A stretch of 46,647 nt of DNA from Anaerolineae bacterium (lineage in GTDB: Bacteria; Chloroflexota; Anaerolineae; JAAYZQ01), in assembly GCA_034434895.1 (NCBI GenBank), contig DAOTYI010000280.1, positions 1-46,647 of the forward strand, given 5' to 3'. This document shows, piece after piece, positions 2,095 to 27,200 of this stretch. How positions within the stretch are numbered: the stretch's first letter is position 1; each line of letters starts with the position of its first letter. Below the pieces are notes generated by a model that saw nothing but the letters and a program-made list of their open reading frames with translations, was not told the origin of the DNA and did not search any database. The position numbers and the translations under genes are program-made.

Positions 2095-3510
2095 ATGAGG
2101 TCTGACCGGCGCAGACCGCTGTTCCTCCTGGGCCTGGCCAGCGCCCTGGTCTATCTGCTGGCCTTTACCCTGCCCTACTGGCTGCCCCGATATGCCCTCA
2201 ACGTCCAGGACGAGATCTATCAGTACGCGGCCAGGGAGCCGTGGCGGGGGGTGCTGTTCTATGCTGCCCTGGCCCTTCTGTTCCTCTTGTACCTGATTGC
2301 CTGTCGCCATGTGGCCCGGCAGGGAGAGGGCCGGGATGATGCCTGGCTGGTAGGGGGTTGGACACTGATCTTTTGCCTGTTGCTCATCCCTGTCCAATCT
2401 ATCACCTCGTCCGATCTGTATGGGTATCTGTTCGAGGGCCGGATCGTGGCCGTGCTGGGCGAGAACCCATTTGCCCATCGCTACAGCGACTTTGCCGCCG
2501 ATCCATTCTACTTCTGTGTAACCTTTCATCACCTGCCGGCCACTACCGGCTATGGGCCGCTGTGGATTGCCCTGACCTCGGCCCTGGGTTGGCTGGCCCG
2601 CGACCGGCTGGTGCTCAATCTCTTCCTGCTCAAGGGGATGGCCGCCGGGTTTCACCTGCTTGGCGCCCTGCTGGTCTACAGGACTCTCAGGCGATCGGCT
2701 CCGGCCCACAGGGTGGCCGGGATGCTGTTCTACGCCTGGAATCCGCTGTTGCTCCACGAGCTGGTGGGCAACGGGCACAATGACGCGGCGGTTGCTGCCT
2801 TTGCTTTGCTGGGCTTTTGCCTTCTCGCCCACGGCCGGGGTCTGTGGGCCGTTCCGTGCCTGATGGCTGCGGCGCTGATCAAGCCGGTGGCCTTGCTCTG
2901 GGTGCCGCCGGTGGCCCTCTGGCTTGTGGGGCAGGGTCTCACCTGGCCGGCCCGTGTCCGCCGGGCAGTGGGGGTTGCGACCCTGACCATTCTGCCGGCG
3001 GTGCTGGCCTATGCTCCCTTCTGGGCGGGGGCGGCGACCTTTCGTGGCCTGTTGATGCAGAGCGACATCCACGGCAACTCTCTGCCCAATCTGTTGATCC
3101 AGGCCTTCTCGAACCTGTGGCCGGAGGCAGGAGAGCGGATTGTCCAGGGGGTCAAGCTTCTCACCATCCTGGCGTTTGTCCCGTTCTACCTGAATCGGCT
3201 GCGGTTGGCCCGGCGTGACCTGATGCGTGCCTGTTTCGATGTGATCCTCTTTTATCTGTTCTTCGTCGGTTTGCAGTTCATGCCCTGGTATGTCACCTGG
3301 CTGCTGGTTCCTGCGGCCCTGATCGCCGGCCCTGCCCCTGACCGCCGTCGCTCCGTGGCCCTCATCCTCTGTCTGCTGGCGCCGCTTCTCTATTTTCCCT
3401 TCGGCTGGCAGTGGGCCAGGGACCATCTGCTGGACTGGGAAGTGGCCCTGCTGGCCTGCGTGCCGGTGGTGGGGGCCGGCCTGTGGCTGATCGGGCGTGC
3501 CTCAGAGTAG
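2095..3510 (+). CDS. polytopic membrane protein, GT-C-fold glycosyltransferase-like (DUF2029/MptB-like mannosyltransferase family by motif recall)
   Basis: More than 10 hydrophobic segments. The motif WNPLLLHELVGNGHNDAAV resembles the NPLxxxxxxGGxHND loop I recall from polyprenol-phosphate-mannose-dependent GT-C enzymes. I prefer ATG 2095 (GGAG 8 nt upstream) over the GTG at 2044 given in the ORF track. Confidence 0.6.
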   Translation: MRSDRRRPLFLLGLASALVYLLAFTLPYWLPRYALNVQDEIYQYAAREPWRGVLFYAALALLFLLYLIACRHVARQGEGRDDAWLVGGWTLIFCLLLIPVQSITSSDLYGYLFEGRIVAVLGENPFAHRYSDFAADPFYFCVTFHHLPATTGYGPLWIALTSALGWLARDRLVLNLFLLKGMAAGFHLLGALLVYRTLRRSAPAHRVAGMLFYAWNPLLLHELVGNGHNDAAVAAFALLGFCLLAHGRGLWAVPCLMAAALIKPVALLWVPPVALWLVGQGLTWPARVRRAVGVATLTILPAVLAYAPFWAGAATFRGLLMQSDIHGNSLPNLLIQAFSNLWPEAGERIVQGVKLLTILAFVPFYLNRLRLARRDLMRACFDVILFYLFFVGLQFMPWYVTWLLVPAALIAGPAPDRRRSVALILCLLAPLLYFPFGWQWARDHLLDWEVALLACVPVVGAGLWLIGRASE

Positions 3511-3522
3511 GGCAACTACTGG

Positions 3523-3546
3523 AGGGCAACTGCGAGCAGTTGCCCT
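3523..3546 (+). terminator. GC-rich hairpin just after the GT-C gene (possible terminator, no U-tract)
   Basis: AGGGCAACTGC / GCAGTTGCCCT gives a 10-11 bp perfect stem, 13 nt after the TAG at 3508..3510. No T-run follows, so intrinsic-terminator status is uncertain. Confidence 0.35.
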
Positions 3547-3565
3547 ACAATAGGGCCGGTTGGAT

Positions 3566-7022: not shown

Positions 7023-7846
7023 TGGCGGAGGGGTTGCAGGGCGCAGTGGTCCTCATCACCGGCGGAACGCGGGGGCTGGGCAAGGCGATCGGGATCGAGT
7101 TCGCCCGCGCCGGCGCCCGGGTCTATCTCACCCATCGCTGGGGGAGCGTGGATGAAGAGGAGCTGGCCGCCGAGTTTCGGACCCTGGGCCTGCCTGTGCC
7201 ACGCATCGTCGAGGCGGACGCCGGCGACCCGGAGGCGACGCGGGAGCTGATGGCCCTGCTCCAGGCGGAGGTCGGCCGGCTGGATGTCGTGATCAGCAAC
7301 GTCGCCTTTGCCAAAGTGGTGCGCGATCTGGAAGATCTGAAAAGAAACGCCTTTGAACTGTCGCTCAGATATTCAGCCTGGCCGGTGGTGGACCTGGTTC
7401 AGGCGGCGCATCAGGCTTTCGGGCGTTATCCGCGGTATGTCATCGGCATCTCCAGCGGCGGTGGGGAGGTCTGCTTTGACGGCTATGACCTGGCCGGCGC
7501 TGCCAAGGCGGTGCTGGAAACGCTGTGCCGCTACCTGGCCTTTCGCCTCAAACGATACGGCGTGCGGGTCAACGTCGTCCGCCCCGGCCTGCTGGACACT
7601 GCCAGCGCCCGGGCAACATTTGGTGACGAGACGGTGGAAGCCATCCAGAGCCGGTTAGGAACCTGGCTGCTTGACCCGCGCCAGGTGGCCCGGGTGTGCG
7701 TGGCCCTCTGCTCCGGCTGGATGGATGCTGTGACCGGCCAGGTGATCGTCGTGGATGAAGGCTGGTCGCTGGTCAGCCCGATTGCGTACCTGACCGGCCG
7801 TGGCCTGCCGGGCGGGTTCCCGGAAGAGGAGGGACCGGCCTCATGA
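7022..7846 (+). CDS. enoyl-[ACP] reductase-like SDR (FabL/FabI type, Y-x6-K)
   Basis: TGGTRGLGKA Rossmann motif. ISSGGGEVCFDGYDLAGAAKAVLETLCRYLAFRL aligns by eye with B. subtilis FabL [34 protein letters not shown], which has the Tyr-x6-Lys spacing of enoyl reductases rather than YxxxK. The start overlaps the upstream stop by 1 nt. Confidence 0.72.
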   Translation: MAEGLQGAVVLITGGTRGLGKAIGIEFARAGARVYLTHRWGSVDEEELAAEFRTLGLPVPRIVEADAGDPEATRELMALLQAEVGRLDVVISNVAFAKVVRDLEDLKRNAFELSLRYSAWPVVDLVQAAHQAFGRYPRYVIGISSGGGEVCFDGYDLAGAAKAVLETLCRYLAFRLKRYGVRVNVVRPGLLDTASARATFGDETVEAIQSRLGTWLLDPRQVARVCVALCSGWMDAVTGQVIVVDEGWSLVSPIAYLTGRGLPGGFPEEEGPAS

Positions 7847-8355
7847 CCTGGGATCTGTCCGCCGAGGGGGTAGAACTCTTGCGCCGGGCAGCGAAGGAGC
7901 TGCTCCTGCCGCCGGTTGAGCGGGAAAAGGGGCCGTTTCTCGACCGGGCAGCCGTCGAAGCGCTGCTGCCGCACCGCGATCCGTTCCTGCTGGTGGACCG
8001 GGTTACCCGGCTTGACCTGGAGCGGGGCATCGTGGTCGCCCGCTATGATCTGAACCGGGCCGGGGCAGTCCTGGCCGGGCATTTTCCGGGCCGGCCGGTG
8101 TGGCCTGGCGTCTTGCAGGTGGAGGCCATTGCCCAGGCGGGCGGCCTGCTCCACCTGGCCCGGACCGGCCTTTCCGGGGCGGAAGGTGCTGCGCTGACGC
8201 ACATTTTCGCCGCCCGTTTCCTCCGGCCGGTCACGCCCGGCGGCGAGCTGGAGATCATAGCCCATCTTTGGGAAGAGGGGTTGTTGCTCACCGTCATCGG
8301 GCAATGTTTGCACCACAACAAGATCTGTTCAGTGGCTGCCGTAGCCATCCTTTGA
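7843..8355 (+). CDS. fabZ: 3-hydroxyacyl-[ACP] dehydratase (FabZ/FabA hot-dog fold)
   Basis: LLPHRDPFLLVDRV...GHFPGRPVWPGVLQVEAIAQ matches the FabZ signature LPHRYPFLLVDR...GHFP..PVMPGVL..EA.AQ, including the catalytic His and Glu. ATGA overlap with the upstream gene. Confidence 0.88.
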   Translation: MTWDLSAEGVELLRRAAKELLLPPVEREKGPFLDRAAVEALLPHRDPFLLVDRVTRLDLERGIVVARYDLNRAGAVLAGHFPGRPVWPGVLQVEAIAQAGGLLHLARTGLSGAEGAALTHIFAARFLRPVTPGGELEIIAHLWEEGLLLTVIGQCLHHNKICSVAAVAIL

Positions 8356-8392
8356 AGGAGACAGGTTCAGAATGACTCGTGAGGAAATTTTT
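8354..8392 (+). repeat. direct repeat copy 1: duplicated SD + ATG + first 7 codons of the ACP gene
   Basis: GAAGGAGACAGGTTCAGAATGACTCGTGAGGAAATTTTT is identical over 39 nt to 8506..8544. Confidence 0.95.
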
Positions 8393-8497
8393 CAGCCTAC
8401 CCTCCCGCAGGCTTGGAATCTGGTTGAAATCGTTCGTTGCGTCCGACTATTCAACGAATTTCTGCCTGAAACTGCTGCCAAGCCTGCGGGAGGGTGA
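8372..8497 (+). CDS. 41-codon ORF created by the duplicated ACP start (possible leader or decoy peptide; may not be functional)
   Basis: ATG 8372 sits behind the duplicated GAAGGAG SD. It reads MTREEIFQPTLPQAWNLVEIVRCVRLFNEFLPETAAKPAGG and stops at TGA 8495..8497, 8 nt before the second SD. Confidence 0.2.
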   Translation: MTREEIFQPTLPQAWNLVEIVRCVRLFNEFLPETAAKPAGG

Positions 8498-8505
8498 GCA
8501 GTTAC
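8393..8505. mobile_element. 113-nt palindromic (MITE-like) insertion between the two 39-nt direct repeats
   Basis: Perfect 18-bp inverted repeat ACCCTCCCGCAGGCTTGG (8399..8416) / CCAAGCCTGCGGGAGGGT (8478..8495) around a 61-nt AT-richer loop. No coding capacity. Confidence 0.55.
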
Positions 8506-8544
8506 GAAGGAGACAGGTTCAGAATGACTCGTGAGGAAATTTTT
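8506..8544 (+). repeat. direct repeat copy 2 (functional SD and start of the ACP gene)
   Basis: Identical 39 nt to 8354..8392, continuing into the intact ACP reading frame. Confidence 0.95.
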
Positions 8545-8775
8545 GCCGTGATCAAGGCCAACATTCAGGAGATCATCCCCGGCGCCAGGGGGAAAGAGAT
8601 CCTGGAATCGAATAGCATGCGCGATTTTGGCGCCGACTCTTTAGAGGTCGTCGAGGTGGTCTCGCGTTCGATGAAGCAGTTGCGCATCAAAGTGCCGCGC
8701 AGCGAGTTGTTGGAAGTGCGGGATCTGAAGGGCCTGCTGGATGTCTTTGAAAAAGCCGCGGCCCAAACCCGGTGA
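8524..8775 (+). CDS. acyl carrier protein (dedicated)
   Basis: 83 aa from ATG 8524 (SD GAAGGAG at 8506..8512). DFGADSLEVVEVV carries the DSL phosphopantetheine-attachment serine. The ORF-track start at 8494 (GTG) is less likely. Confidence 0.88.
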   Translation: MTREEIFAVIKANIQEIIPGARGKEILESNSMRDFGADSLEVVEVVSRSMKQLRIKVPRSELLEVRDLKGLLDVFEKAAAQTR

Positions 8776-9481
8776 GGGCCGGTTGCGGCTGGTCCTCCTG
8801 GCCGACCAGGGTCAGCCGCCTGACCTGCTCCTGATGAGGTTGTCGCCGGCCGAGCGCGAACAGGCCGAACAGCGCTGGCCGGCCGGGTGCCGTCGCCGCC
8901 AGTTCCTGTTGGGCCGGCTGGCTGCGCATCGGGCTGTGCAGCGGCTGCTGGCCGGCCGGGTGCCCCCCCCTTCGATCCAGGTGCTCAGCGGGCCGGCCGG
9001 CGAGCCGCGGGCGCGCGTGGACGGGGTTGAGGGCCTCGTCTCGGTCTCGTTGGCCCATTCAGGGCGGCTGGCGCTGGCCTGCGCCTGGCCGGGCGCCAGG
9101 TGCCACACCGGCGTGGACCTGGAACGGGTCCGCCCGACCGACGTGGCGCACAGCCGCTATGCCTTTTCGCGCCGGGAGCGTGCCCTGTTGGCCCGCGCCC
9201 CGGAGGGGCTGGCGCTGGCCGGACTCGCCGCCTGGACGGCCAAAGAGGCGGCCTGGAAGGCGTTGTGGCCCCATCAGCCGGTCAGCCCGGCCGGGGTCGA
9301 GATCCGGGCGCTGGACCTGGAACGGGGGTGCGCTGTGGTCCAGGCCCCGCCCGGCCGTTCGCAGTTTGAGGTGCGGCTCGGCCTCATCGCCGGCCCAGAC
9401 GGTCCCTATCTCCTGTCCATCGCCCAACTCACGCAATATGCAGCACAGAACCCATATGCGGGAGACGTCAACCATGAGTAA
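8741..9481 (+). CDS. 4'-phosphopantetheinyl transferase (Sfp-type)
   Basis: About 246 aa. GVDLERV and WTAKEAAWKAL match the PPTase motifs (G-x-D-x-E, W/F-x-x-K-E-A-x-x-K). The start is uncertain: ATG 8741 overlaps the ACP by 35 nt, and TTG 8783 is an alternative. Confidence 0.8.
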   Translation: MSLKKPRPKPGEGRLRLVLLADQGQPPDLLLMRLSPAEREQAEQRWPAGCRRRQFLLGRLAAHRAVQRLLAGRVPPPSIQVLSGPAGEPRARVDGVEGLVSVSLAHSGRLALACAWPGARCHTGVDLERVRPTDVAHSRYAFSRRERALLARAPEGLALAGLAAWTAKEAAWKALWPHQPVSPAGVEIRALDLERGCAVVQAPPGRSQFEVRLGLIAGPDGPYLLSIAQLTQYAAQNPYAGDVNHE

Positions 9482-10766: not shown

Positions 10767-10819
10767 GACAGGGAAAACCGGACCCGGGCATCGGTGGGCT
10801 TTTGTTGAGGGAGTTGAGC

Positions 10820-12121
10820 ATGGCCGCAAACAGGCGAGAGGATGAGCGCCGGGTGGTGGTGACCGGCATGGGCGTCGTCACCGCCATCGGCGAAACCCTG
10901 ACCGAATATCGGGACTCGCTTCAGGCCGGGCGTTCGGGCATCACCCGCTGGAAGCAGATGGACGGGCGCATCTATTCCAGGATCGGCGGCGACCTGAGCG
11001 ATTTCGACCTGAAGGCCCACCTGGCCCACGTCGGGGCGGACTATCCGCCTGACCTGGTGGAGCAGGCGCTGCGGCTGCTGCGCGCCACCCCGCTCCCCGG
11101 CCGGCTGACGGCCGCAGCCGACCTGCAGGCCTTTCTCGACGCCGGCCTGGAGGGGGCGCCCTATGACCCGGAGCGGTTCGGGCATGTGCTGGCCGGGCAT
11201 AACCTGAGCACCCGCTATATCTACGACAACGTGTTGACATTGCAGGAGGAGCCGGAGTTCATTGACCCGCTCTACGCCCTGATGTTCCTGGACACCGATG
11301 TGCTGTCGGTTGGCTCGGAGCTGCTGGGCTTGAAAGGCCCCAGTTTTTCCGTCGGCGGGGCGTGCGCCAGCGGCAATGTGGCGCTGCTGATGGCGCTGGA
11401 CCTGCTCCGTGCTGGCCGGGCCGAGGCGGTGTTGGTCAGCGGCGGCTCGGTGGACCTGGACCCGGTGGTGCTCCAGAGTTGGGCCATCATGGATGCCATC
11501 TCGGTGCGCTCCTTCAACGACGAACCGTGGCGGGCCAGCCGCCCCTTCGATGTCCGGCGCGAAGGCTTTGTCCCGGCGGAAGGGGCCGGGGCGGTGGTGC
11601 TGGAGACGCTGGCCGGGGCGCGGCGGCGCGGTGCCCGCATCCATGCCGAACTGTTGGGCGGGGCATCGGCCTCCGACGCCTCGCGGCTGCCCAAACCCAA
11701 CGCCGAGGGGCAGGCGCGGGCCATGCGCCTGGCCCTCCAGGATGCGCAGGTCGCCCCGGAACAGGTCAACTATATCAACGCCCATGCCACTTCTACGGTG
11801 CTGGGCGACCTTGTCGAGGTGCAGGCCATCAAAGAGCTGTTTGGCGCGCACGCCCGCCGCATCCCGGTCAACGCCACCAAGTCTCTTCTCGGCCACTGCC
11901 TGACTTCGGCCGGCATCGTCGAGCTGATCGCTACGGTGTTGCAGATGGAGTATGGCTTTCTGCACCCGACCCTCAACCTGGAGGAACCGGAACCGGGCCT
12001 GGACCTGGATTTTGTGCCCCATCAGGCGCGACCCTATCAGATCGAGGTGGCCCTGTCCAACGCCTTTGGCTTTGGTGGGCTGAACACCTGCATCGTCGTC
12101 GGCAGGGCGGACTGGCTCTAA
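10820..12121 (+). CDS. beta-ketoacyl-[ACP] synthase (KAS I/II-like), tandem copy 2
   Basis: ATG 10820 with GAGGGAG upstream. GGACASGNVAL, NAHATSTVLGDLVE, TKSLLGHCL and SNAFGFGGLN, so the active-site Cys is retained and this is not a chain-length-factor type. Roughly two-thirds identical to copy 1 by eye. Confidence 0.92.
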   Translation: MAANRREDERRVVVTGMGVVTAIGETLTEYRDSLQAGRSGITRWKQMDGRIYSRIGGDLSDFDLKAHLAHVGADYPPDLVEQALRLLRATPLPGRLTAAADLQAFLDAGLEGAPYDPERFGHVLAGHNLSTRYIYDNVLTLQEEPEFIDPLYALMFLDTDVLSVGSELLGLKGPSFSVGGACASGNVALLMALDLLRAGRAEAVLVSGGSVDLDPVVLQSWAIMDAISVRSFNDEPWRASRPFDVRREGFVPAEGAGAVVLETLAGARRRGARIHAELLGGASASDASRLPKPNAEGQARAMRLALQDAQVAPEQVNYINAHATSTVLGDLVEVQAIKELFGAHARRIPVNATKSLLGHCLTSAGIVELIATVLQMEYGFLHPTLNLEEPEPGLDLDFVPHQARPYQIEVALSNAFGFGGLNTCIVVGRADWL

Positions 12122-17574: not shown

Positions 17575-19040
17575 GATGGAACAGGTTGCCCACAGCCGGT
17601 CTGCGACCCGCGGCCGGCGGCGGTCACAGACCGCCGGGGAGCACAAACCTCCATCTGCTGCTGCTGGGTGGTTGGTTGGTGATGGCGATGATGGTTGCGG
17701 CCTGTGAGCCGCAGCCCGGCACGCCCACTGTTCCAACAGGCCCGACGGCCCTTCCGCCAGGTCCGACGCCGACCCAACCGCCTCCCTCACCCACACCCCG
17801 TCCGACCGAGACGCCTGTGGCCCCGATAGAGGGGGGAGTGATCGGCGCCCAGGTGGGGCCGGAGCAGGTGGAGATGGTGTGTGCCGGGTTGCAACGGAAC
17901 GGAGTGGCTGCAACGGCCCTGTGGTTGCGTTGGGGCGATGTGGACCCGGGCAACGGGCGCTACGCCTGGGACGAGCTGGACCGCCAGGTGGAGGGGTTGC
18001 GTGCCTGTGGCCTGGAAGTGGCGCTTCACGTCCAGGCCCGCCGCCAGGGTGAACTCTCGGCCCTGCCGCCAGACCTGGAGGAGTATGCCCGTTTCCTTAC
18101 CGCCCTGGCCACCCACCTGAAGGGACGGGTGCGCCGCTATTCCGTCGAAAACGAGGCCGTGTCGCCGGCGTCCTGGGGCGATTCGGCGGACGACTATTTC
18201 CGGCTTCTGGACGCTGCCTACCCGGCCATCAAAGCCGCCGACCCGGAGGCCATTGTGCTCAACAGCGGCCTGTCGAGCGCGGCCCTGGGCATTGCCCGGG
18301 CGCATGACCTGTATCAGGCAGGACAGCGCCCCCAGGCCCTCCATCTGGTGCAGCAGACTCTGGCCGAGTCGGCCGGGGGGCTGGCCTGGCGCATTCCGCA
18401 GAGCGAAGAGGACCTGGACCTCCTCTTTCAGGACCCGGTGGCGGCGCGGGCCGTTGCCTGGCTGCCCCTGCTGATCCAGCACCAGGGCAGCTACGATGCC
18501 TTGCAGTTCCACTACTACGGGCCGGCGTCGCAGTTGCCCGATCTGCTGCGCTGGCTGCGCCAGCAGGGCCTCAACAAACCCCTGGAGGCGTGGGAGTTAG
18601 GCCGGCGCTACCAGGGCCAGGTCGCTTTTGACGAGGCCGCACACGCTCAGGAGACCGCCCGGCTGCTGGTGGCGGCCGCCGGTGAGGGGTCGCGCTTCAG
18701 CCTCTTTGTCCGCTTCCTGGAATGGCCGCAGAAGGGGCTGCCCGGCCTGGCAACCCGGCAGGGGCCACGCCCGGCTGCCGTGGCCTTCCGCGTCGTCGCC
18801 CAAAGCCTGAACGGCTTCCTGGCAGTGGAACGGCTGGACCTGGGTGCAGGGGTGTGGGCTTACCGCTTCACCCGACCCCAGGGCGACCTGTATGTGTTGT
18901 GGACCGATGGCGGCCAGGCGAGCGTGAGCCTGCCCCTGACAGAGGGGGCAGTGAATGTCACCGACATCGAAGGGCAGACGGCGACGGCTGACCCCTCGCA
19001 GTTGGAGATCGGCCCCAGCCCGGTGTTTGTCAGCCCATGA
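17571..19040 (+). CDS. putative secreted lipoprotein, glycoside-hydrolase-like (clan GH-A TIM-barrel suspected)
   Basis: The N-terminal hydrophobic segment ends in a lipobox-like MVAAC, followed by a Pro/Thr-rich linker. VRRYSVENEA resembles the Asn-Glu acid/base strand of clan GH-A enzymes. The functional call is weak. Confidence 0.4.
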   Translation: MRWNRLPTAGLRPAAGGGHRPPGSTNLHLLLLGGWLVMAMMVAACEPQPGTPTVPTGPTALPPGPTPTQPPPSPTPRPTETPVAPIEGGVIGAQVGPEQVEMVCAGLQRNGVAATALWLRWGDVDPGNGRYAWDELDRQVEGLRACGLEVALHVQARRQGELSALPPDLEEYARFLTALATHLKGRVRRYSVENEAVSPASWGDSADDYFRLLDAAYPAIKAADPEAIVLNSGLSSAALGIARAHDLYQAGQRPQALHLVQQTLAESAGGLAWRIPQSEEDLDLLFQDPVAARAVAWLPLLIQHQGSYDALQFHYYGPASQLPDLLRWLRQQGLNKPLEAWELGRRYQGQVAFDEAAHAQETARLLVAAAGEGSRFSLFVRFLEWPQKGLPGLATRQGPRPAAVAFRVVAQSLNGFLAVERLDLGAGVWAYRFTRPQGDLYVLWTDGGQASVSLPLTEGAVNVTDIEGQTATADPSQLEIGPSPVFVSP

Positions 19041-20713
19041 CCTCTCCTGTTTTCCCCTCTGCGCCACGGCGGGTGATGATCATCGGCCTGGATGGCGCCA
19101 CCTGGCAACTGGCCCGCCCCTGGGCCGAAGCCGGTCACCTGCCCACCTTCCGCCGTCTGATGGCCGAAGGGGCCTGGGGGACGCTGCAAAGCGTCCTGCC
19201 CCCGGTGACCCCTGCCGCCTGGAGCAGCTTTGCCACCGGCCTGAACCCCGGCAAACATGGCCTGTTCGACTTTGTGGGGCGGCGGGATGGCTCCTACGAG
19301 ACCTATGTGGCCAATGCTGGCTACCGGGATGGGGTGCCGCTCTGGCAACTGGCCGGCCGGGCCGGCCGGCGCGTCACCGTGTTCAACGTGCCGGCCACCT
19401 ACCCGCCCGATCGGGTGAACGGGCTGATGGTCAGCGGCTTCCTGACGCCGGCCCACGCCACCGACGCCGCCTGGCCTCCTGAGCTTCAGGCTGAACTGGC
19501 CCGGGCCGTGCCGCAATTTACCTTCTATCCGCCCAACATCTACTCCCCCGGCCATGAGGCCGAATTCATCCAGGCCATCTCCGACCTCAACCGGGCCACC
19601 CTGGAGGCGGTGCGCTACCTGCTGCGCCGCCAGCCGTGGGACCTGTTTGTCGCCGTCTTTATGGGTACCGACGTGATCCAGCATTTCCTGTGGGGCCCTA
19701 TGGCACAGGGGGAGGGGGAGCTGGCCGGGGCGATCCTGGACTGCTACCGGCAGATGGACACGGCCCTGGAGGAGCTGGTTGCCGGCCTGGGGCCGGACGA
19801 TTATCTGGTCGTGATGTCGGACCATGGTTTCGGGCCGTTGAGCCACTATGTCCATGTCAACGCCTGGCTGGCCGGGCACGGCTACCTCAAATTCAGGCGC
19901 AATCCGCTGTCGGCGCTCAAAGCGGTGGCCTACCGCCTGGGCTTTACACCGCTGGGGGTGTATGAGAGGCTGCGGGCGCTGGGCCTGGGCGGTCGGATGC
20001 AGGAGACGGCCAGCCGACGGAACGAGTGGCTGAAGGCGATGGTGCAAAAGCTGTTCCTCTCCCTGCCCGATGTGGACTGGAGCCGCACGCGGGCCTATTC
20101 CCTGGGCTTTGGCGGGCCGATCTTTGTCAACCTGCAGGGCCGCGAACCGCAGGGGATCGTCGCTCCGGGCGCCGGGTACGAGGCGTTGCTGGCGCAGATC
20201 GAGGCTGACCTGCGGCAGACGGTGGACCCGGTGACCGGCCGGCCTTTCGTGGGGCAGGTCTATCGCCGCCAGGAGCTATACACCGGCCCGCACGCCGACC
20301 ACGCCCCCGATCTGATCTTTGTGCCCGCCGATTGGGCCTGCCAGCCCTTTGGCACCCACGAGTTTGCCTCCCACCGCTGGCTGGAACCATGCCGTGACCG
20401 CAGCGGTACCCACCGCCTGGACGGCCTGCTGCTGCTGTGGGGACCGGGCGTCCGGCGCGGCGTCCAGGTCGAAAGGGCGGCCATTGTGGATGTGGCGCCT
20501 ACCGTGTTGGCCCTGCTGGGCGTGCCGATCCCAACAGGGATGGATGGTCGGGTGCTGTCTGCCGCCCTGGAGGACAGTTTGCTGACAGCTCTCGACATAA
20601 GATATGACCAGGCAGAAGAGGGAATCTCTGTCCATCGCCCGCTGCCGGACATGAGCCAGGAGGATGAAGAGCTGCTGCGGCACCACCTGCGCGGCCTGGG
20701 GTATGTGGCATGA
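19037..20713 (+). CDS. alkaline-phosphatase-superfamily protein, type I phosphodiesterase/nucleotide pyrophosphatase family (paralog 1)
   Basis: IIGLDGATW (metal Asp), PPVTPAAWSSFATG (Thr nucleophile context) and VMSDHGFGP (metal His) match the NPP/PF01663-type core. C-terminal tail EDEELLRHHLRGLGYVA. Confidence 0.8.
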   Translation: MTSPVFPSAPRRVMIIGLDGATWQLARPWAEAGHLPTFRRLMAEGAWGTLQSVLPPVTPAAWSSFATGLNPGKHGLFDFVGRRDGSYETYVANAGYRDGVPLWQLAGRAGRRVTVFNVPATYPPDRVNGLMVSGFLTPAHATDAAWPPELQAELARAVPQFTFYPPNIYSPGHEAEFIQAISDLNRATLEAVRYLLRRQPWDLFVAVFMGTDVIQHFLWGPMAQGEGELAGAILDCYRQMDTALEELVAGLGPDDYLVVMSDHGFGPLSHYVHVNAWLAGHGYLKFRRNPLSALKAVAYRLGFTPLGVYERLRALGLGGRMQETASRRNEWLKAMVQKLFLSLPDVDWSRTRAYSLGFGGPIFVNLQGREPQGIVAPGAGYEALLAQIEADLRQTVDPVTGRPFVGQVYRRQELYTGPHADHAPDLIFVPADWACQPFGTHEFASHRWLEPCRDRSGTHRLDGLLLLWGPGVRRGVQVERAAIVDVAPTVLALLGVPIPTGMDGRVLSAALEDSLLTALDIRYDQAEEGISVHRPLPDMSQEDEELLRHHLRGLGYVA

Positions 20714-20747
20714 GGCAGGAGGGAAGAGGGAAGAGGCAGGAGGCAAG
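20714..20747 (+). promoter_or_regulatory. 34-nt polypurine spacer with stacked SD-like motifs (repeated at 22461..22494)
   Basis: GGCAGGAGGGAAGAGGGAAGAGGCAGGAGGCAAG lies between the TGA and the ATG. It contains only G, A and a few C, with two or three GGAGG cores. Confidence 0.5.
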
Positions 20748-22460
20748 ATGCAGGATACGCAATATGCAATCCGCAATCGAGTGATGGTGTTGGGGGTGGA
20801 TGGGGCGACGCTGGACCTGATCCTTCCCTGGGCTGAGGCCGGCCTGCTGCCCACCTTTGCCCGCCTGATGCGCCAGGGCAGTTGGGGGGTGCTGCGCAGT
20901 GTCGTGCCGCCGGTCAGCCCCACCGCCTGGAGCTCCTTTCTGACCGGCATGAATCCCGGCCGGCATGGCGTGTACGACTTTATCGGCCGCCGCCCGCGCA
21001 CCTACGAAAATCAACTGGCCAACGCCAGTTATCGCAGCGGTGCCTCGCTGTGGGGGCTGCTGAGCCGGGCTGGCCGACGGGTGACGGTCTTTAACGTGCC
21101 CCTGACCTACCCGGTCGAGCCGGTGAATGGGCTGTTCGTCAGCGGGCTGATGACCCCGGCCGATGCGGCCGACGCCACCTGGCCGCCGGAGTTGCTGGAC
21201 GACATCCGCCGTGCCGTGCCGGCCTTTAACTTTTCGCCGCCCAGCCTGATGCTGCCCGGCCAGGAGGCCGGGTTTGTGCAGGCCGTTGCCGACCTGAACG
21301 AGACGACACGGCGGGTAGCCCGCTATCTGTTGACGCGCCAGCCGTGGGATTTTTTCATGGCCGTCTTTATGGGCGCTGATATAATCTGCCATTTTCTGTG
21401 GAAGCAGATGGCCGAGGCCCGGCCGGACCACCTGGCCGATGCTGTCCAGAACTGCTATCGTCAGATTGACGCCGCCCTGGGCGAGCTGATCGAGATCGCC
21501 GGTCCAGAGACGCACCTGATCGTCATGTCGGATCACGGCTTCGGCCCGTTGGAACGGCAGATACATCTTAACTCCTGGCTGCTGGAGCGGGGCTATCTGG
21601 CCCTCAAGTCGGAACCGGCAACCCGGCTCCGTTCCCTCCTCTACCGCCTGGGCATCACCCGCATGGCCCTGTCGGAGCTGTTGCGCCGCCTGGGGCTGGG
21701 GGAGCGGCTGCGTCGCGCCGGGCGGTATGAGGAGCTGCGCCGCGCCGGGTTGGGGGTGCGGCAGCAAAGGACCGGCCCGCTCCGAGAGCTGGTCAGGCGG
21801 GTCTTTCTGACCATGTCCGACGTGGACTGGTCGCGCACCCGGCTCTTTTCCATCGGCTTTGCCGGGCCACTCTATGTCAACCTGAAAGGGCGCGACCCGC
21901 ACGGCATCGTCGCGCCGGGGGCCGAATACGAGGCGTTGCTGGCGCAGGTAACCGCCGACCTGAGGGCGCTGCGTGACCCACAAAGCGGCGAGCCGCTCAT
22001 CGGCCCCATCTACCGCCGCCAGGAGTTGTACCACGGGCCGCGCGCCGACGAGGCTCCCGACCTGATCTTGATGCCGCGTGACGAAAAAAATGCGCTGACC
22101 GGCATGCTGGAATTTGCCTCGCGCCGCTGGCTGACGCCGGTGCCGGAGCGGACCGGCACCCACCGCATGGACGGCATCCTGTTCCTGGCCGGGCCGGGCA
22201 TCCGCCCCGGCGTCCACCTCGACGACTCATCCATCATGGATGTCGCTCCCACCATCCTGGCGCTGCTGGGCCAGCCGATTCCCACGACGATGGACGGCCA
22301 CGTCCTGGAAAAGGCCATGACCGACGAACTGCGCGCCTCCCTGGAGATCACCCGCACAGCGGTGGAGGAATCCTGGGTTCCCGGCCGATCTGTCGCTTTC
22401 GATGATGAGGAAGAAGCCCTGTTGCGCGAACGGCTGCGCGGTCTGGGGTATGTGGCATGA
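20748..22460 (+). CDS. alkaline-phosphatase-superfamily protein, type I phosphodiesterase/NPP family (paralog 2)
   Basis: From ATG 20748 (MQDTQYAIRNRVMVLGVDGATLD). PPVSPTAWSSFLTG (Ser at the nucleophile position) and VMSDHGFGP. Tail DEEEALLRERLRGLGYVA. The ORF-track start at 20664 overlaps paralog 1 and is rejected. Confidence 0.8.
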   Translation: MQDTQYAIRNRVMVLGVDGATLDLILPWAEAGLLPTFARLMRQGSWGVLRSVVPPVSPTAWSSFLTGMNPGRHGVYDFIGRRPRTYENQLANASYRSGASLWGLLSRAGRRVTVFNVPLTYPVEPVNGLFVSGLMTPADAADATWPPELLDDIRRAVPAFNFSPPSLMLPGQEAGFVQAVADLNETTRRVARYLLTRQPWDFFMAVFMGADIICHFLWKQMAEARPDHLADAVQNCYRQIDAALGELIEIAGPETHLIVMSDHGFGPLERQIHLNSWLLERGYLALKSEPATRLRSLLYRLGITRMALSELLRRLGLGERLRRAGRYEELRRAGLGVRQQRTGPLRELVRRVFLTMSDVDWSRTRLFSIGFAGPLYVNLKGRDPHGIVAPGAEYEALLAQVTADLRALRDPQSGEPLIGPIYRRQELYHGPRADEAPDLILMPRDEKNALTGMLEFASRRWLTPVPERTGTHRMDGILFLAGPGIRPGVHLDDSSIMDVAPTILALLGQPIPTTMDGHVLEKAMTDELRASLEITRTAVEESWVPGRSVAFDDEEEALLRERLRGLGYVA

Positions 22461-22494
22461 GGCAGGAGGGAAGAGGCAGGAGGCAGGAGGCAAG

Positions 22495-24171
22495 ATGCAG
22501 GATACGCAATATGCAATCCGCAATAAAGTGATGGTGTTGGGGGTGGATGGGGCGACGCTGGACCTGATCCTCCCCTGGGCCGAGGCCGGCCTGCTGCCCA
22601 CCTTTGCCCGCCTGATGCGCCAGGGCAGTTGGGGGGTGCTGCGCAGTGTCGTGCCGCCGGTCACCCCCACCGCCTGGAGCTCCTTTCTCACCGGCAGCAA
22701 CCCCGGTCGGCACGGCCTGTACGACTTTGTCGGGCGGCGGCGGGGTAGTTACGACAACTGGCTGGCCAACGCCACCTATCGCAGTGGTGCCTCGCTGTGG
22801 GGGCTGCTGAGCCGGGCCGGCCGGCGGGTGACGGTCTTTAACGTGCCGCTGACCTACCCTGTCGAGCCGGTGAACGGGCTGCTTGTCAGCGGGCTGATGA
22901 CCCCCGCCGACGCCAGTGACGCCACCTGGCCGCCGGAGCTACTGGACGACATCCGTCGTGCCGTGCCGGAGTTTAACTTTTCCCCGCCCGGTGCCTTTTC
23001 GCCGGGTGAAGAGGCCAGGTTCGTGCAGGCCATCGCCGACCTGAACGAGACCACCCGGCAGGTAGCCCGCTATCTGTTGTCGCGCCAGCCGTGGGATTTC
23101 TATATGGCCGTGTTCATGGGCACCGACATTGCCGGGCATTTCTCGTGGAAGGCGATGGCCGATGGCCAGCCGCCGGAGTTGGCCGGCGCCATCCAGGATT
23201 GTTACCGGCAGGTGGATGCGGCCCTGGCCGGGTTGATCGAGGCTGCCGGGCCGGATGTGTACCTGATCGTCATGTCTGACCATGGCTTTGGTTCGCTGGA
23301 CCGTTACCTGCACATCAACGCCTGGCTGCGGGAGCGGGGCTATCTGAAACTGAAGCGGACCCCTGTCACCTGGCTCAAGCGAGCCTTCTACCGGCTGGGC
23401 CTTACCCCGCTGGCCGTCTACCGGGCGCTGCGCCGCCTGGGATTGGGGGAGCAGATACGCCGGGCCGGCCGGCAACGTTCCACGCTGGTCCAGAAGCTGC
23501 TCAAGCGCAGCTTCCTGTCGTTTGCCGATGTGGACTGGTCGCGCACCCGGCTCTTTTCCATCGGCTTTGCCGGGCCGCTCTATGTCAACCTGAAGGGCCG
23601 CGAGCCACACGGAATCGTTGCGCCGGGGGGCGAGTATGAAGCGTTGCTGGCGCAGGTGACTGCCGACCTGCGGGCGTTGCGCGACCCGGCAAGTGGTGAG
23701 CCGCTCATCGGTCCCATCTACCGCCGCCAGGAGCTGTACCAGGGCGAACGTGCCGACGAGGCCCCCGACCTGGTATTCCTGCCCCGCGATATGAGGGACG
23801 GCACCTTTGGCCTGATGGCCTTTGGCTCCAACCGCTGGCTGACGCCAGCCGCCGACCGGACCGGTACCCACCGCATGGAAGGGGTCCTGTTCCTGGCCGG
23901 GCCGGGCATCCGCCAGGGGGTGCATCTGGACGAGTCATCCATCCTGGACATTGCTCCCACCGTCCTGGCGCTGCTGGGCGTGCCCATCCCGGCGACGATG
24001 GATGGTCAGGTCCTGGGAAAGGCCATGACCGATGAACTGCGCGCATCTCTCGACATAACGTATCTGGCTCCGGCTGAGGAGCCTCTGCCGGTCGGCCTGC
24101 CCACCGACTTTGAGAGGGTGGAAGAGGAGCGGCTGCGTGAACACCTGCGCGGCCTGGGCTATGTGGCTTGA
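22495..24171 (+). CDS. alkaline-phosphatase-superfamily protein, type I phosphodiesterase/NPP family (paralog 3)
   Basis: From ATG 22495. The first ~200 nt differ from paralog 2 at only about 6 positions in my manual alignment. PPVTPTAWSSFLTG and VMSDHGFGS. Tail VEEERLREHLRGLGYVA. Confidence 0.8.
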   Translation: MQDTQYAIRNKVMVLGVDGATLDLILPWAEAGLLPTFARLMRQGSWGVLRSVVPPVTPTAWSSFLTGSNPGRHGLYDFVGRRRGSYDNWLANATYRSGASLWGLLSRAGRRVTVFNVPLTYPVEPVNGLLVSGLMTPADASDATWPPELLDDIRRAVPEFNFSPPGAFSPGEEARFVQAIADLNETTRQVARYLLSRQPWDFYMAVFMGTDIAGHFSWKAMADGQPPELAGAIQDCYRQVDAALAGLIEAAGPDVYLIVMSDHGFGSLDRYLHINAWLRERGYLKLKRTPVTWLKRAFYRLGLTPLAVYRALRRLGLGEQIRRAGRQRSTLVQKLLKRSFLSFADVDWSRTRLFSIGFAGPLYVNLKGREPHGIVAPGGEYEALLAQVTADLRALRDPASGEPLIGPIYRRQELYQGERADEAPDLVFLPRDMRDGTFGLMAFGSNRWLTPAADRTGTHRMEGVLFLAGPGIRQGVHLDESSILDIAPTVLALLGVPIPATMDGQVLGKAMTDELRASLDITYLAPAEEPLPVGLPTDFERVEEERLREHLRGLGYVA

Positions 24172-24189
24172 ATGGTAACTACCTGCCCG

Positions 24190-24225
24190 CTACCCTGCCG
24201 CAGGTTTTAACCTGCTGGAGGGTAG
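24190..24225 (+). terminator. hairpin after paralog 3 (terminator-like), with the same core sequence as the palindromic insert at the ACP start
   Basis: CTACCCTGCCGCAGG (24190..24204), loop TTTTAA, CCTGCTGGAGGGTAG (24211..24225). This is a 15-bp stem with 2 mismatches. Compare CTACCCTCCCGCAGG at 8397..8411. Confidence 0.4.
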
Positions 24226-24245
24226 GCGGTTACTTTGAATGACGA

Positions 24246-27200
24246 ATGAAGGGTGACAAGAAGGCGACGCTTCTGGCGTCATGGCGCACCTGGCCGGAGT
24301 GGTGGCTGCTCCTTCTGGGCCAGGCGATCTTTTGGGCGGTGCGTCCCTGGCTGATGGGGAGGGAATGGCATTGGGTGGTGGCCTGGGGAGCACTGGGCCT
24401 GTTCCTGTTGCCCGGCACTTCTTTGCTGGTGCTGCTGGGCGACAGTGGCAACTGGTGGGAGCGGCTGAGCCTGGCCTTTGTCGGCAGCCTGTCGCTGCCC
24501 AGCCTGCTAGCCCAGGCGGCCATGCTGCTCCACACCAACATCCAGACCTGCACCTGGGGCTTCCTGGCCCTGACCGGGGTTCTGCTGCTGGCTGCCCTGC
24601 TGCGCCAGATCTTGGGCCCTCCGGCCGGGGAGGCGATCCGCCCTGATGAAGGGCGTACCCCTTTCTGGCTGGTTCTTTTTCTGGCCGCGCTGCTGGCTGG
24701 TCTGGCGGTTTACTGGGCCAACGCCCCCATGGATTCCGACCAGTGGAACGCCCTGGCCTGGGTGCAAAACCTGCGCCATGATGCCCGGATGATGGCCGAG
24801 GAACCGCTCTATGGTCTGGGCATCCCCATCTCGCCGCGCTACATGTTTGTGCCGTGGCTGACCCATCAGGCCATGCTCTCCCTGCTGACCGGGCTGGACC
24901 CGGTGGACCTGCTCATCCCGCTGCGGCTGCCCCTGATCTTCCTGTCCATCGGCGCCGTCTACCGCCTGGCCCGCGCCATCACCCGGCAGCGCAAAGCCGC
25001 TGGCCTGGCGACGCTGGCCTGGGGCTTTTATCTGCTGGTCTGGAACCAGGGCTCCTATCCCGGCTACGACCTGGTGGTCCGCTCCGACCTGGACAAGATT
25101 CTGGCCAGTTTCACCCTGCTGCCGGTCATCCTGGACCTGGCCCTGGCTGCCCTGCAACGCGGCACCTGGCGCGAGTGGGCCTGGCTGGCGCTGGGTTCAG
25201 TGGCGGCTGCCCTGATGCACCCGTTGGCTGTGGGGCTGGTCGGCCTGTCGCTGCTGGGGCTGGCGGGCATCGAGGTGTTGCACCTGATCCTGCCCCCCTG
25301 GAAAACGATGACCCTGGCCGACCGGCGACGGCTGCTCCTCCGCCTGGCCCTGACGGCCTTGATCCTCGGCCTGGCGTTGATCCCGTCGCTTGTCGGGCTA
25401 CAGGCCGGCGCGGCCACGCCCACCGGCACTGTGGTCTCCAGCGGCCTGCAGGATACGCGCGACCCCAGCCTGGCTCGCAACCTGGGCTATGCCCTGGCCC
25501 AAAAGCGGCTCTGGATCCTGGACAGCGGCCGCTATATCGTCCATCCGCAGATGTTGCTCCAGCCGATCCATCTGGTGGCCCTGGTGGCCCTGCTCGTCCT
25601 CCTGCCTCTGCTGCGCCGCGAGCGGGGCGTCCGCCTGCTGCTGGGCATGGCCATCACCATCCCGATCTTGACCCTCAACCCGCTCACCGCCGGGCTGCTG
25701 GGGCGGTTCACCACCCCCTGGCTGCTGTACCGGCTGGCCTGGCCGGTGACCCTGGCGGCAGCGGTGGCTATCGGCTGGGGCCTGTATCTGCTGTTTCAGC
25801 GGCGGGTGTGGCGGCGGCTCAGCACCGTGGCGCTGATCGCCCTGTTGCTGGCCGTGGCCCTGGCGGCCATCCCGGCCTATCAGGCATCTGTCACCTGGCT
25901 GCGCGAACGCCGCGACACCTTTAGCGCCAACACCTGCTTCCAGGCCGGCCCGATCCTGCGACCTTTCCAGGAGCTGGTGCCCGGCGCGGAACCGCCGCCT
26001 GAGCTGCCCCCGCCCGACCCGCAAACCCAGGCAGGCCGGTGGCGGAGCGGCGTGACCGTCCTGGCCGACGATGACATGAACGGCTGCCTGACCTCCTACG
26101 CACCCTATGCCAACGTCATGGAGTTCCGCACTACCAACCTGATCCGCTACTATCCACCTGACAAAGAGGAGGTGGCCTGGCAACGGCTGTTCGATGCCCT
26201 GTACTACAGCAACGCCGAGTTTGTGGACCGGCGCTTCCTCGACCTCCTGGACCGATGGGCTATCGGCTATCTGATTGTGCGCCAGAGTTCGCCGTTAGAG
26301 CCGCAGTTGCGCCACCTGCCCGGCCTGTTCCAACCGGTCGCTTCGGCGGTGGGGCGCACCATCTACCGGGTGGAACGTCCCCTGTCGCCGTCAGCGGTGG
26401 TGGAGGCCAACACCCTCCTGGCTGAAGGCCGGTTCGAGCAGGGCATCGCGGCCTATCAGAGGCTCCTGAACACAGGGGATGACGACGCCCGTTTCCTGGC
26501 GCTGCTGGGCCTGGGGCGGGCCTATCTGCACACCGGGCAGGTGGAGCAGGCCATTACTGCCTGGCAGCAAGCCACCGCCTGGCCGGAGGAGGCCCTGCCC
26601 TGGGCCTGGCTGGCCGAGGCCTACCTGCTCCAGGGCCGTTCCGACCAGGCCCTGGCCGCCTATCGGCAGGCTGTGGCCCGCCAGCCGGGTAATGTGGCCT
26701 TTCAGACCCGGCTGGGCGACCTGTGCGCCGCCGCCGGCGACCTTGCCTGCGCCCAGGCGGCCTACAACGCCTCGCTGGCCGGCATCCCGCCGGAGAGCAG
26801 CACCGCTTACAACCGGTTGGGGCAGTTGTGGCAGAACGCCAATGCCAACGAGCAGGCCATCGCCGCCTATGAGAAGTCGCAGCAGATCTACGAAGGGTAC
26901 CTGACCTGGGGGGCATTGGGCGCCGTCTATCTGAAGCTGAGGCAGTGGGAGCGGGCCGAAGCGGCCTTCCGGCGTATCCTGGAGCTGGACCCGTGGGAGG
27001 AAAGTGCGCACCAATATCTGGGCCAGCTCTATGCCGCACAGAACCGGATGCAACAGGCAGAGGAGGAGTACCGGCTGGCCCTCCGCCTGAACCCCCTGGC
27101 CAGCGGCGGCTATGCTGCCCTGACGTCGCTGTGGGTCAGCCAGCAGGGGACCCCTGCTGCCATAGAGCGGCTCCGGGAGATGGTCGGCTTTCGGCTGGGC

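Follow-up and report, generated by a model that had tools for sequence, protein, structure and literature searches.

Members of the IS66 family of insertion sequences (IS) carry inverted repeats of 20-30 bp that start with GTAA(GCG) and are flanked by direct repeats of 8 bp (PMC11946415). ISDge4 of Deinococcus geothermalis belongs to the ISBst12 group of this family, whose elements have a single open reading frame (ORF); it has the terminal repeats GTGACTACTCAGCA and GTAACTGCTCAGCA, its direct repeats measure 8 bp, and copy-and-paste is its reported mode of transposition (PMC12898284). The DNA considered here is a stretch of 46,647 nucleotides from an Anaerolineae bacterium (contig DAOTYI010000280.1, in the following 'the window'), in which 113 nucleotides of a miniature inverted-repeat transposable element (MITE) with termini of apparently this type lie between the gene of a FabA/FabZ-type dehydratase and that of an acyl carrier protein (ACP). 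The insert is framed by a 39-nucleotide direct repeat which takes in the translation initiation region of the ACP gene. The explanation favoured here, with a probability of roughly 0.8, is a recent, strain-specific insertion of the MITE at the dehydratase-ACP junction in which one joint was made by a transposase and the other by host replication or repair, with a small and unselected effect on ACP.

Several other described systems offer points of comparison. Repetitive extragenic palindromic (REP) elements lack target duplications and are associated with RAYT (HUH) transposases, Correia elements duplicate TA, and intergenic hairpins of the REP/BIME, ERIC and Correia types alter the stability or translation of operon mRNA. 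Leaders of the erm, tna and secM type are short upstream ORFs that control the translation of the main gene. The direct repeats of IS1549 and IS1634 vary between 8 and 514 bp by a mechanism that is not known, compared with a usual range of 2-14 bp for insertion sequences (PMC2266710).

Structure of the dehydratase-ACP junction

The dehydratase gene (ApeI-like, 170 residues) occupies positions 7843..8355 of the plus strand and is identified from the ORF list, a Pfam FabA match (E = 1.2e-17) and the precomputed assignments PF07977 and PF22818. The gene ends in a TGA (8353-8355) that overlaps the first of two Shine-Dalgarno (SD) sequences, the G of this stop codon being also the first base of an exact 39-nucleotide repeat, GAAGGAGACAGGTTCAGAATGACTCGTGAGGAAATTTTT. 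This repeat is found at 8354-8392 and at 8506-8544, its only two occurrences in the 46.6-kb window, and none of 100 dinucleotide shuffles yielded a match. The upstream copy (8354..8392, plus strand), delimited by repeat search and by alignment with empty sites, contains the SD GAAGGAG (8354-8360), an ATG at 8372 and the codons for MTREEIF. The downstream copy (8506..8544, plus strand), delimited in the same way, provides the functional SD and the first seven codons of the intact ACP gene (8524..8775, plus strand), which encodes 83 residues with a DSL motif and matches Pfam PP-binding with 26.4 bits (E = 8.2e-6), above the curated cut-off of 20.8.

The 113 nucleotides between the two copies (8393-8505) have a GC fraction of 0.549 compared with 0.656 for the whole window and contain a perfect 18-bp inverted repeat (8399-8416 / 8478-8495), which extends to 27 nucleotides with 85% complementarity. 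The left arm (8399..8425, ACCCTCCCGCAGGCTTGG...) is the inner part of a terminal inverted repeat and pairs with the right arm (8469..8495, ...CCAAGCCTGCGGGAGGGT), both arms being defined by repeat search, folding and family alignment; when folded, the insert forms one extended hairpin with a folding energy of -57.2 kcal/mol (z = -7.7). To the right of this hairpin lies a complete outer terminus, GAGCAGTTAC (8496..8505; reverse complement GTAACTGCTC), which is recognised as the canonical end by comparison with the family and with the ISDge4 terminal repeat, and which abuts GAAGGAGA. No further copy of the 18-mer arm or of the 39-mer is present elsewhere in the window. The upstream ATG opens a chimeric ORF of 41 codons (8372-8497, plus strand) in the ORF list, which begins with seven ACP codons, continues by read-through into the insert and matches no Pfam family. 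It crosses both hairpin arms, and its stop codon (8495-8497) lies 8 nucleotides before the second GAAGGAG and 26 nucleotides upstream of the ATG of ACP. A preliminary description of this DNA had reported the duplication, the AT-richer insert with its inverted repeat and the 41-codon ORF, and all three are reproduced here to the base.

Empty and filled alleles

The same description had read the arrangement as an insertion that duplicated the junction but left the ACP gene intact, and had pointed to orthologous junctions as the place where an empty site with one 39-mer should be found. By exact-protein look-up the identical ACP protein is encoded on 18 contigs, and among those listed nine (L003-L009, L011 and L012) have a single 39-mer and only 16 nucleotides from the dehydratase stop to the ACP ATG, the junction reading ...CCTCTGAAGGAGACAGGTTCAGAATGACTCGTGAGGAAATTTTTGCCGTG.... 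With 96-97.4% identity to the window, these contigs are assigned to the same species and evidently represent sister strains. Short junctions are also found in three outgroups, with lengths of 15, 28 and 15 nucleotides at dehydratase identities of 74%, 70% and 65%, respectively, and all three share with the window an SD that overlaps the stop codon and an MTREEIF start. As the short junction occurs in conspecifics and outgroups, it is evidently ancestral and the 152 extra nucleotides (113 + 39) are a derived, strain-specific insertion, in line with the initial proposal. A duplicated arrangement with a conserved peptide in relatives, which had been named as the observation that would contradict an insertion, is missing from the nine conspecific contigs and the three outgroups.

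The filled allele is present in identical form in the JGI contig Ga0129299_1006880 (L001/L010), which differs from the window at one of 4924 positions. A Logan contig, SRR5216251_36337 (L002), is 100% identical to the window and ends at position 8383. Logan assemblies are built from graphs of k = 31 in which each 31-mer is unique (PMC12424806). The last 31-mer unique to the first copy, composed of a T and 30 nucleotides of the repeat, ends at 8383, which is where such a de Bruijn graph is bound to branch if two different left contexts precede the 39-mer; a break caused by the neighbouring strain single-nucleotide polymorphism (SNP) at 8352 would instead end at 8382. Its coordinates thus suggest that the contig break is the branch point expected of a real duplication. 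The filled allele is carried by two to three independent assemblies, the third being counted from the position of this break. When filled alleles were sought by way of called genes, neither the 41-residue ORF nor a 93-residue ACP with a GTG start was on record.

A MITE family of the Chloroflexota

By its sequence, the insert (8393..8505) is evidently a copy of a MITE family that is spread through metagenome-assembled genomes (MAGs) of Anaerolineae and other Chloroflexota. A scan for the 18-nucleotide arm in one genome per species yields 38 genome loci, of which 33 are in Anaerolineae, Chloroflexota or Thermoflexia MAGs, including 13 contigs of one MAG; the remaining five matches, in other phyla, are without a second arm and are about as numerous as expected by chance. 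When laid out in register, most of the Chloroflexota loci are elements of 114-122 nucleotides, the full length of the family being 122 nucleotides. They follow the layout GTAACTGCTC-ACCCTCCCGCAGGCTTGG...core...CCAGCCTGCGGGAGGGT-AGGCT-GAGCAGTTAC, with a terminus that reads GTAACTGCTC(AGCCT)ACCCTCCCGCAGGC and is also written GTAACTGCTC(AGCCT)ACCCTCCCGCAGG. In the family alignment the inverted termini of about 25 nucleotides are conserved and the hairpin-forming core is variable, which is the usual pattern of MITEs. Clean 8-bp target duplications flank about 18 copies, and examples from genome copies are CCTTAGGG, ACGAAATA, GACGATCC, GCCAGATG, TGCGAACT, CCTGGAGG, TTTATACC and TATCTGAC. In one MAG, several copies occur per 8 kb.

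The core of the window's own subfamily is found at seven metagenome loci from the sample set that also yielded the empty-site contigs. Sibling copies in L053, L055, L057 and L051 have the full length of 122 nucleotides and equal the window copy at 111-112 of 113 positions, and the 8-bp duplications of siblings read CCACATTC, GAATGACC and CACCCTCC/CACCCTAC. The sibling comparison, an nhmmer match to the family (E = 8.7e-34) and the absence of the insert from empty sites agree in defining the window copy as 113 nucleotides of the 122-nucleotide element, truncated at the left end and complete at the right. The insert is short and non-coding, the chimeric read-through being the sole ORF across it; the family is multicopy, and the ACP site is polymorphic for its presence (empty on nine contigs, filled in two to three assemblies). 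The expectation that a palindromic element should exist in several copies is thereby confirmed, and uniqueness of the insert, which would have spoken against such an element, is not borne out. A literature search for MITEs in Anaerolineae gave no description of this family, which would be previously undescribed and of a known kind.

Other classes of sequence were considered for the insert. A scan of positions 7800-9200 against Rfam 15, with E values up to 10, gave only chance-level matches, the best scores over the insert being 18.1 and 15.8 bits compared with gathering thresholds of 98 and 61 (E > 1), and no meaningful match to the element was found in viral contigs, phage records or plasmid records. 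Like REP/BIME, ERIC and Correia elements the insert is a stable palindrome between co-transcribed genes, where it could conceivably affect mRNA processing or coupling. A palindrome of the REP/BIME type was nevertheless rejected, since clean 8-bp duplications flank most copies whereas the RAYT-linked REP elements have none, and the family also differs in this from the TA duplication of Correia elements. Off-target spacer integration of a CRISPR-like kind, attL/attR sites of an integrative element and random filler DNA were likewise dismissed, the insert being a near-full MITE copy that ends exactly at the family terminus.

Further small repeats in these genomes share features with the family. 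At 24176-24234 the window holds a mini element of 59 nucleotides, GTAACTACCTGCCCGCTACCCTGCCGCAGGTTTTAACCTGCTGGAGGGTAGGCGGTTAC, with GTAAC...GTTAC termini and a stem motif in common with the MITE at the ACP gene. Its flanks, cTTGAATG and tTTGAATG, match at 7 of 8 positions of an 8-bp duplication. This duplication contains the stop of the ORF at 22402-24171, and the element ends 11 nucleotides before the ATG (24246) of an ORF of 3103 residues. By its sequence, the element appears to be another member of the family, diverged but with a canonical duplication. In L055 (4242-4318, equal to L056 68-144) half of a sibling MITE ends abruptly at its centre and is followed by a G/C-rich palindrome, CCCCTTCCCCTCTCCGCGGCGGAGAGGGGAAGGGG, and by AT-rich DNA; the adjoining sequence is unrelated and contains no transposase, and this structure may have arisen by a deletion or by insertion of a further small element into the MITE. 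The sibling at 5725-5846 of L053 (equal to 1008-1129 of L035, from Anaerolineae bacterium H21_249) is full length and has no recognisable target duplication between its flanks GGAATATA and AAAGTCCA, an indication that copies have recombined or that the flanking DNA has decayed. The match between L053 and L035 would link the population of the window to the MAG H21_249.

Stand-alone hairpins of 31-32 nucleotides with the sequence of the MITE stem and without GTAAC termini (CCCTCCCGCAGG-loop-CCTGCGGGAGGG) occur in many Anaerolineae MAGs (L016:3667; L018:6394 and 7489; L021:3231; L026:1981, 2272 and 2906; L028:5780; L038:4389; L045:714; L050:3926) and may be REP-like, terminator-like or eroded elements. 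A palindrome of the form GGGCAACTGC-GA-GCAGTTGCCC recurs in the intergenic DNA of the population, at 3516-3553 of the window, near 3586-3620 of L055 and near 3382-3400 of L053, where the variant reads GTAACTGCTC-GCAGTTGCC. In L053 and L055 an ORF starts directly downstream of the palindrome, which resembles two abutted outer MITE termini, or else an operator or short hairpin.

Proposed relationship to IS66 and ISBst12

The MITE end GTAACTGCTCAGCC is equal to the ISDge4 terminal repeat GTAACTGCTCAGCA at 13 of 14 positions. Judged by termini and duplication length alone, the family is a putative MITE of the IS66/ISBst12 type: its inverted termini start with GTAA and fall within the 20-30 bp of IS66 elements, and its target duplications are of 8 bp. 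MITEs derived from ISBst12 with ISDge4 termini would share with it the terminus GTAACTGCTCAGC (13/14 positions), inverted termini of about 25 nucleotides from GTAA and the 8-bp duplications, and would likewise be short, non-coding, hairpin-forming, multicopy and polymorphic between strains. Differences lie in the host phylum, which is Chloroflexota here, and in the lack of a cognate transposase in the approximately 400 kb searched, which comprised the collected element loci together with the window. Within this sequence, no pairs of termini 1-3 kb apart were found and a six-frame scan for motifs like those of the IS66 protein TnpC was negative. The window copy departs from ISBst12-derived elements further in that 9 nucleotides of one terminus are missing and its flanks are duplicated over 39 nucleotides.

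Two different joints

When compared with its siblings, the window copy has a complete right end (...GGGAGGGTGAGCAGTTAC) that abuts GAAGGAGA, while its left end begins at CAGCCTACCC and is without the outer 9 nucleotides GTA(A/T)CTGCT. The truncation removes approximately one strand of the outer 10-bp stem and ends directly before a 5-nucleotide bulge. The bases shared at this aberrant left junction, as read from the sequence, amount to 1 nucleotide (T). None of the 36 other family loci has a flank repeat longer than 12 nucleotides, and on this comparison the 39-nucleotide duplication is evidently a one-off rather than a family property, with the left junction as the only one that appears non-canonical. 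With 39 nucleotides duplicated instead of the 8 bp of the family, the window copy is therefore a family member by sequence and the result of a non-canonical event by its product. That so long a duplication is atypical and points to a different insertion or repair step, as had been suggested, is a fair inference given that the same family makes 8-bp duplications elsewhere. The accompanying idea that a palindromic element landed in codon 8 of the ACP gene stands only in part: a palindromic element was inserted and the junction was duplicated, but the sole canonical junction is at the SD (...GAGCAGTTAC / GAAGGAGA) and the element is without its outer 9 nucleotides. Insertion into codon 8 with subsequent rebuilding of the gene would leave both junctions non-canonical, yet the right one is canonical. 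Duplication of a target palindrome as described for IS1630 was also rejected, since the 39-mer on inspection is not an inverted repeat itself.

From these junctions we infer that one transposase-made joint and one joint made by host repair are the most likely cause. The right joint would be the normal product of the transposase at the target GAAGGAGA, which fits the tendency of the family to adjoin ribosome-binding sites, as for instance with the duplication CCTGGAGG in L047. The first 8 nucleotides of the duplication, GAAGGAGA, would accordingly represent the canonical target duplication and the other 31 nucleotides would be extra. The left joint would stem from host replication or repair, for which two versions can be envisaged. 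In one, copy-and-paste would be one-ended or abortive, the 3' end of the nicked target would be extended by 39 nucleotides through strand displacement, and end joining at 1 nucleotide of microhomology would connect it to an incompletely copied or trimmed element. In the other, a normal insertion with an 8-bp duplication of GAAGGAGA would be followed by a template switch or a slip during gap repair across the hairpin, such that the nascent strand realigns on the second GAAGGAGA, copies 31 nucleotides and returns 9 nucleotides inside the element.

A bolder and rather doubtful extension is that the window copy provides a snapshot of target-primed replicative (copy-and-paste) insertion by ISBst12/IS66 elements, a process that could be aborted and then finished by host repair. 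One exact end, one end cut at the edge of the outer stem, a microhomology of 1 nucleotide and a long duplication would together be indicative of such a process. Truncated, target-primed insertions with variable target duplications are known from the 5'-truncated copies of LINE-1 in eukaryotes, which arise via an RNA intermediate and reverse transcription. The likeness, which is one of analogy only, is that the ends differ, one being exact and the other truncated and joined with minimal microhomology, and that the target duplication is long and of non-standard length; the window copy differs in being a DNA MITE in a bacterium. If the extension were true, scarred MITE copies could be mined for the mechanism by which the poorly understood ISBst12/IS66 elements move, and scarred insertions may recurrently duplicate ribosome-binding sites and start codons and thus create new upstream ORFs.

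Predicted effect on ACP expression

The duplication takes in the SD, the spacing, the ATG and seven codons, and the initiation region of the ACP gene is therefore complete and the allele viable. What the event adds to the operon mRNA is a stable stem (-57 kcal/mol), together with the chimeric ORF of 41 codons. On the folding predictions these by-products probably change ACP output little, and this effect is probably not selected for. Accessibility was calculated by partition-function folding of positions 8250-8650 as the mean probability of being unpaired from the SD to AUG+12. The MITE folds into its own stem, the second SD is located 10 nucleotides 3' of that stem, and the predicted mean is 0.37 in the filled allele and 0.36 in the empty one, with values of 0.43 and 0.27 for the second SD alone. 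No terminator-like or promoter-like motif brought in by the insert was detected, and the element was accordingly discarded as a carrier of an intrinsic terminator or promoter. Translational coupling through the upstream ORF would be physically possible, as its stop is close to the ACP start codon. There is no sign that translation of ACP is gated. Nor is there any sign of selection on the insert, the repeats being identical, the allele occurring in one lineage and the peptide having no relatives. Repeats that are still identical and an element which differs from its siblings at only 1-2 positions also mean that the event is young and has left no time for domestication.

Alternative explanations

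The preliminary description had further proposed that the upstream 39-mer and the hairpin constitute an accidental or domesticated leader-peptide device, in which translation of the 41 codons melts the 18-bp stem and thereby controls the dosage of ACP. The geometry invites this idea, because the upstream copy has a full SD, spacing, ATG and seven codons and should be translated, the ORF runs over both arms of a very stable stem, and the distances of its stop from the second SD and ATG fit termination-reinitiation. The arrangement resembles leaders of the erm, tna and secM type in that a short ORF is closed by a stop directly ahead of the main gene's SD and that ribosomes reading this ORF would open a stem. 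Attenuators conserve the leader ORF and its structure, whereas here the arrangement is found neither on the nine conspecific contigs nor in the three outgroups, whose FabZ identities are 74, 70 and 65%. They also sequester the SD or AUG unless the leader is translated, whereas the second SD lies outside the stem and is predicted to be as accessible as in the empty allele; neither an alternative SD-sequestering structure nor a known stalling motif is present. The peptide, moreover, is MITE read-through which matches no family, other copies of the element reside in unrelated contexts, and the arrangement, a by-product of a recent transposon insertion, is too young for domestication. A leader-peptide device is consequently very improbable. 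Least probable of all is that the duplication is an assembly artefact, or that the filled state is ancestral and was lost in relatives through recombination between the 39-mers. Misassembly does classically arise at short exact repeats around a palindrome, and 39-nucleotide direct repeats can mediate deletions, but the independent JGI assembly has the same structure one SNP apart and the Logan contig breaks at 8383 and not at 8382. An artefact had been named in advance as a finding that would overturn the insertion, and these two assemblies counter it. The short junctions of outgroups down to 65% protein identity speak against an ancestral filled state, and the fact that the insert is a mobile element with siblings at other sites speaks against both.

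How the left joint was formed can be explained in other ways. Both joints could be the work of the transposase if the target was cut with a stagger of 39 nucleotides and the truncated end served as a pseudo-end, and the long repeats of IS1549 and IS1634 provide a precedent (PMC2266710). The canonical right joint agrees with this, and the 31 nucleotides by which the duplication exceeds 8 correspond to about three helical turns and would bring the second attack onto the same face of the DNA. In IS1549 and IS1634, however, copies as a rule have intact ends and target duplications far above the usual 2-14 bp, whereas here a single event among about 33 sites, with a truncated end and the termini of another IS family, is observed, none of the 36 other loci having a long flank repeat and about 18 copies having exactly 8 bp. 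DDE transposases need the terminal nucleotides for cleavage and strand transfer; the truncated end is devoid of them, and the internal break at GGCTG is unlike the true ends GATAC/GTTAC. A stagger made entirely by the transposase is hence improbable, if less so than a leader device. Unequal homologous recombination between two full-length MITE insertions 31 nucleotides apart, with target duplications GAAGGAGA and AAATTTTT, would by crossing over inside the element yield exactly 39 nucleotides (8 + 23 + 8), and the family is active in the population, as several sibling sites attest. It would require two insertions within 31 bp, one of them disrupting the ACP gene at codon 8, and in addition a separate deletion of the 9-nucleotide terminus. 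Its parental alleles, in which GGAAATTTTT or GAAGGAGA is joined to a complete GTA(A/T)CTGCT left terminus, are both absent from the contigs listed, so that this route has very little likelihood. Insertion with one transposase-made and one host-made joint remains the best account, against which several points have to be set. The joining mechanism is deduced from one product, and its intermediate, which would be of full length, be flanked by GAAGGAGA as an 8-bp duplication and have the junction GAAGGAGA+GTA[AT]CTGCTCAGCC, was not seen, no dedicated search having been made. The microhomology of 1 nucleotide does not strongly favour either a template switch or end joining, and the interval of 39 - 8 = 31 nucleotides is compatible with a purely transposase-made long stagger. 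An autonomous IS66/ISBst12 element with these termini was not found in the collected loci and the window, and for expression the effect is predicted from thermodynamics only.

Operon and neighbouring variation

The genes of the operon are arranged in the order DegT-type aminotransferase, two short-chain reductases, dehydratase, ACP, phosphopantetheinyl transferase and two ketosynthases, from which it follows that ACP is the dedicated carrier protein of a lipid/polyketide-type operon in an Anaerolineae (Chloroflexota) bacterium. A second small-repeat polymorphism of the operon is located in the spacer between the ketosynthase genes. In strains with an empty ACP site, a palindromic repeat unlike the MITE occupies it with between one and three units in tandem (GTTTCCGCTCGCCGGGGGTCTGTGAC...CCCGGAAGTTAAC; L003/L006 5245-5650, L004 5245-5448 and L005 5245-5417), whereas the corresponding spacer of the window (10768-10835) is 67 nucleotides long and has no such unit. 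The empty-site strain L008 has a deletion of about 57 nucleotides in the phosphopantetheinyl transferase gene (3489-3494, compared with 9012-9074 in the window), and its product of 213 residues has no Pfam match on record. Further downstream, the window contains three tandem paralogous genes of about 1.7 kb each (19000-24171) with segments that are 66-93% identical, followed by the ORF of 3103 residues (24246-33557), which is composed of TPR-like repeats of 34 residues (102 nucleotides).

Significance

The oddity at the dehydratase-ACP junction is a mobile-element insertion polymorphism and not a new regulatory or recombination system, and no wider implication is drawn from it as yet. It documents a MITE family with putative IS66/ISBst12-type termini that is abundant in Anaerolineae and other Chloroflexota and of which the literature search gave no earlier description. 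The combination of one canonical joint and one joint of the repair type would offer a clue to how a little-studied group of insertion sequences inserts. The filled and empty strains, finally, form a natural allele pair in which the same operon occurs with and without a hairpin of -57 kcal/mol and a duplicated initiation region, and which could serve to measure the influence of insertions of this kind on translational coupling.

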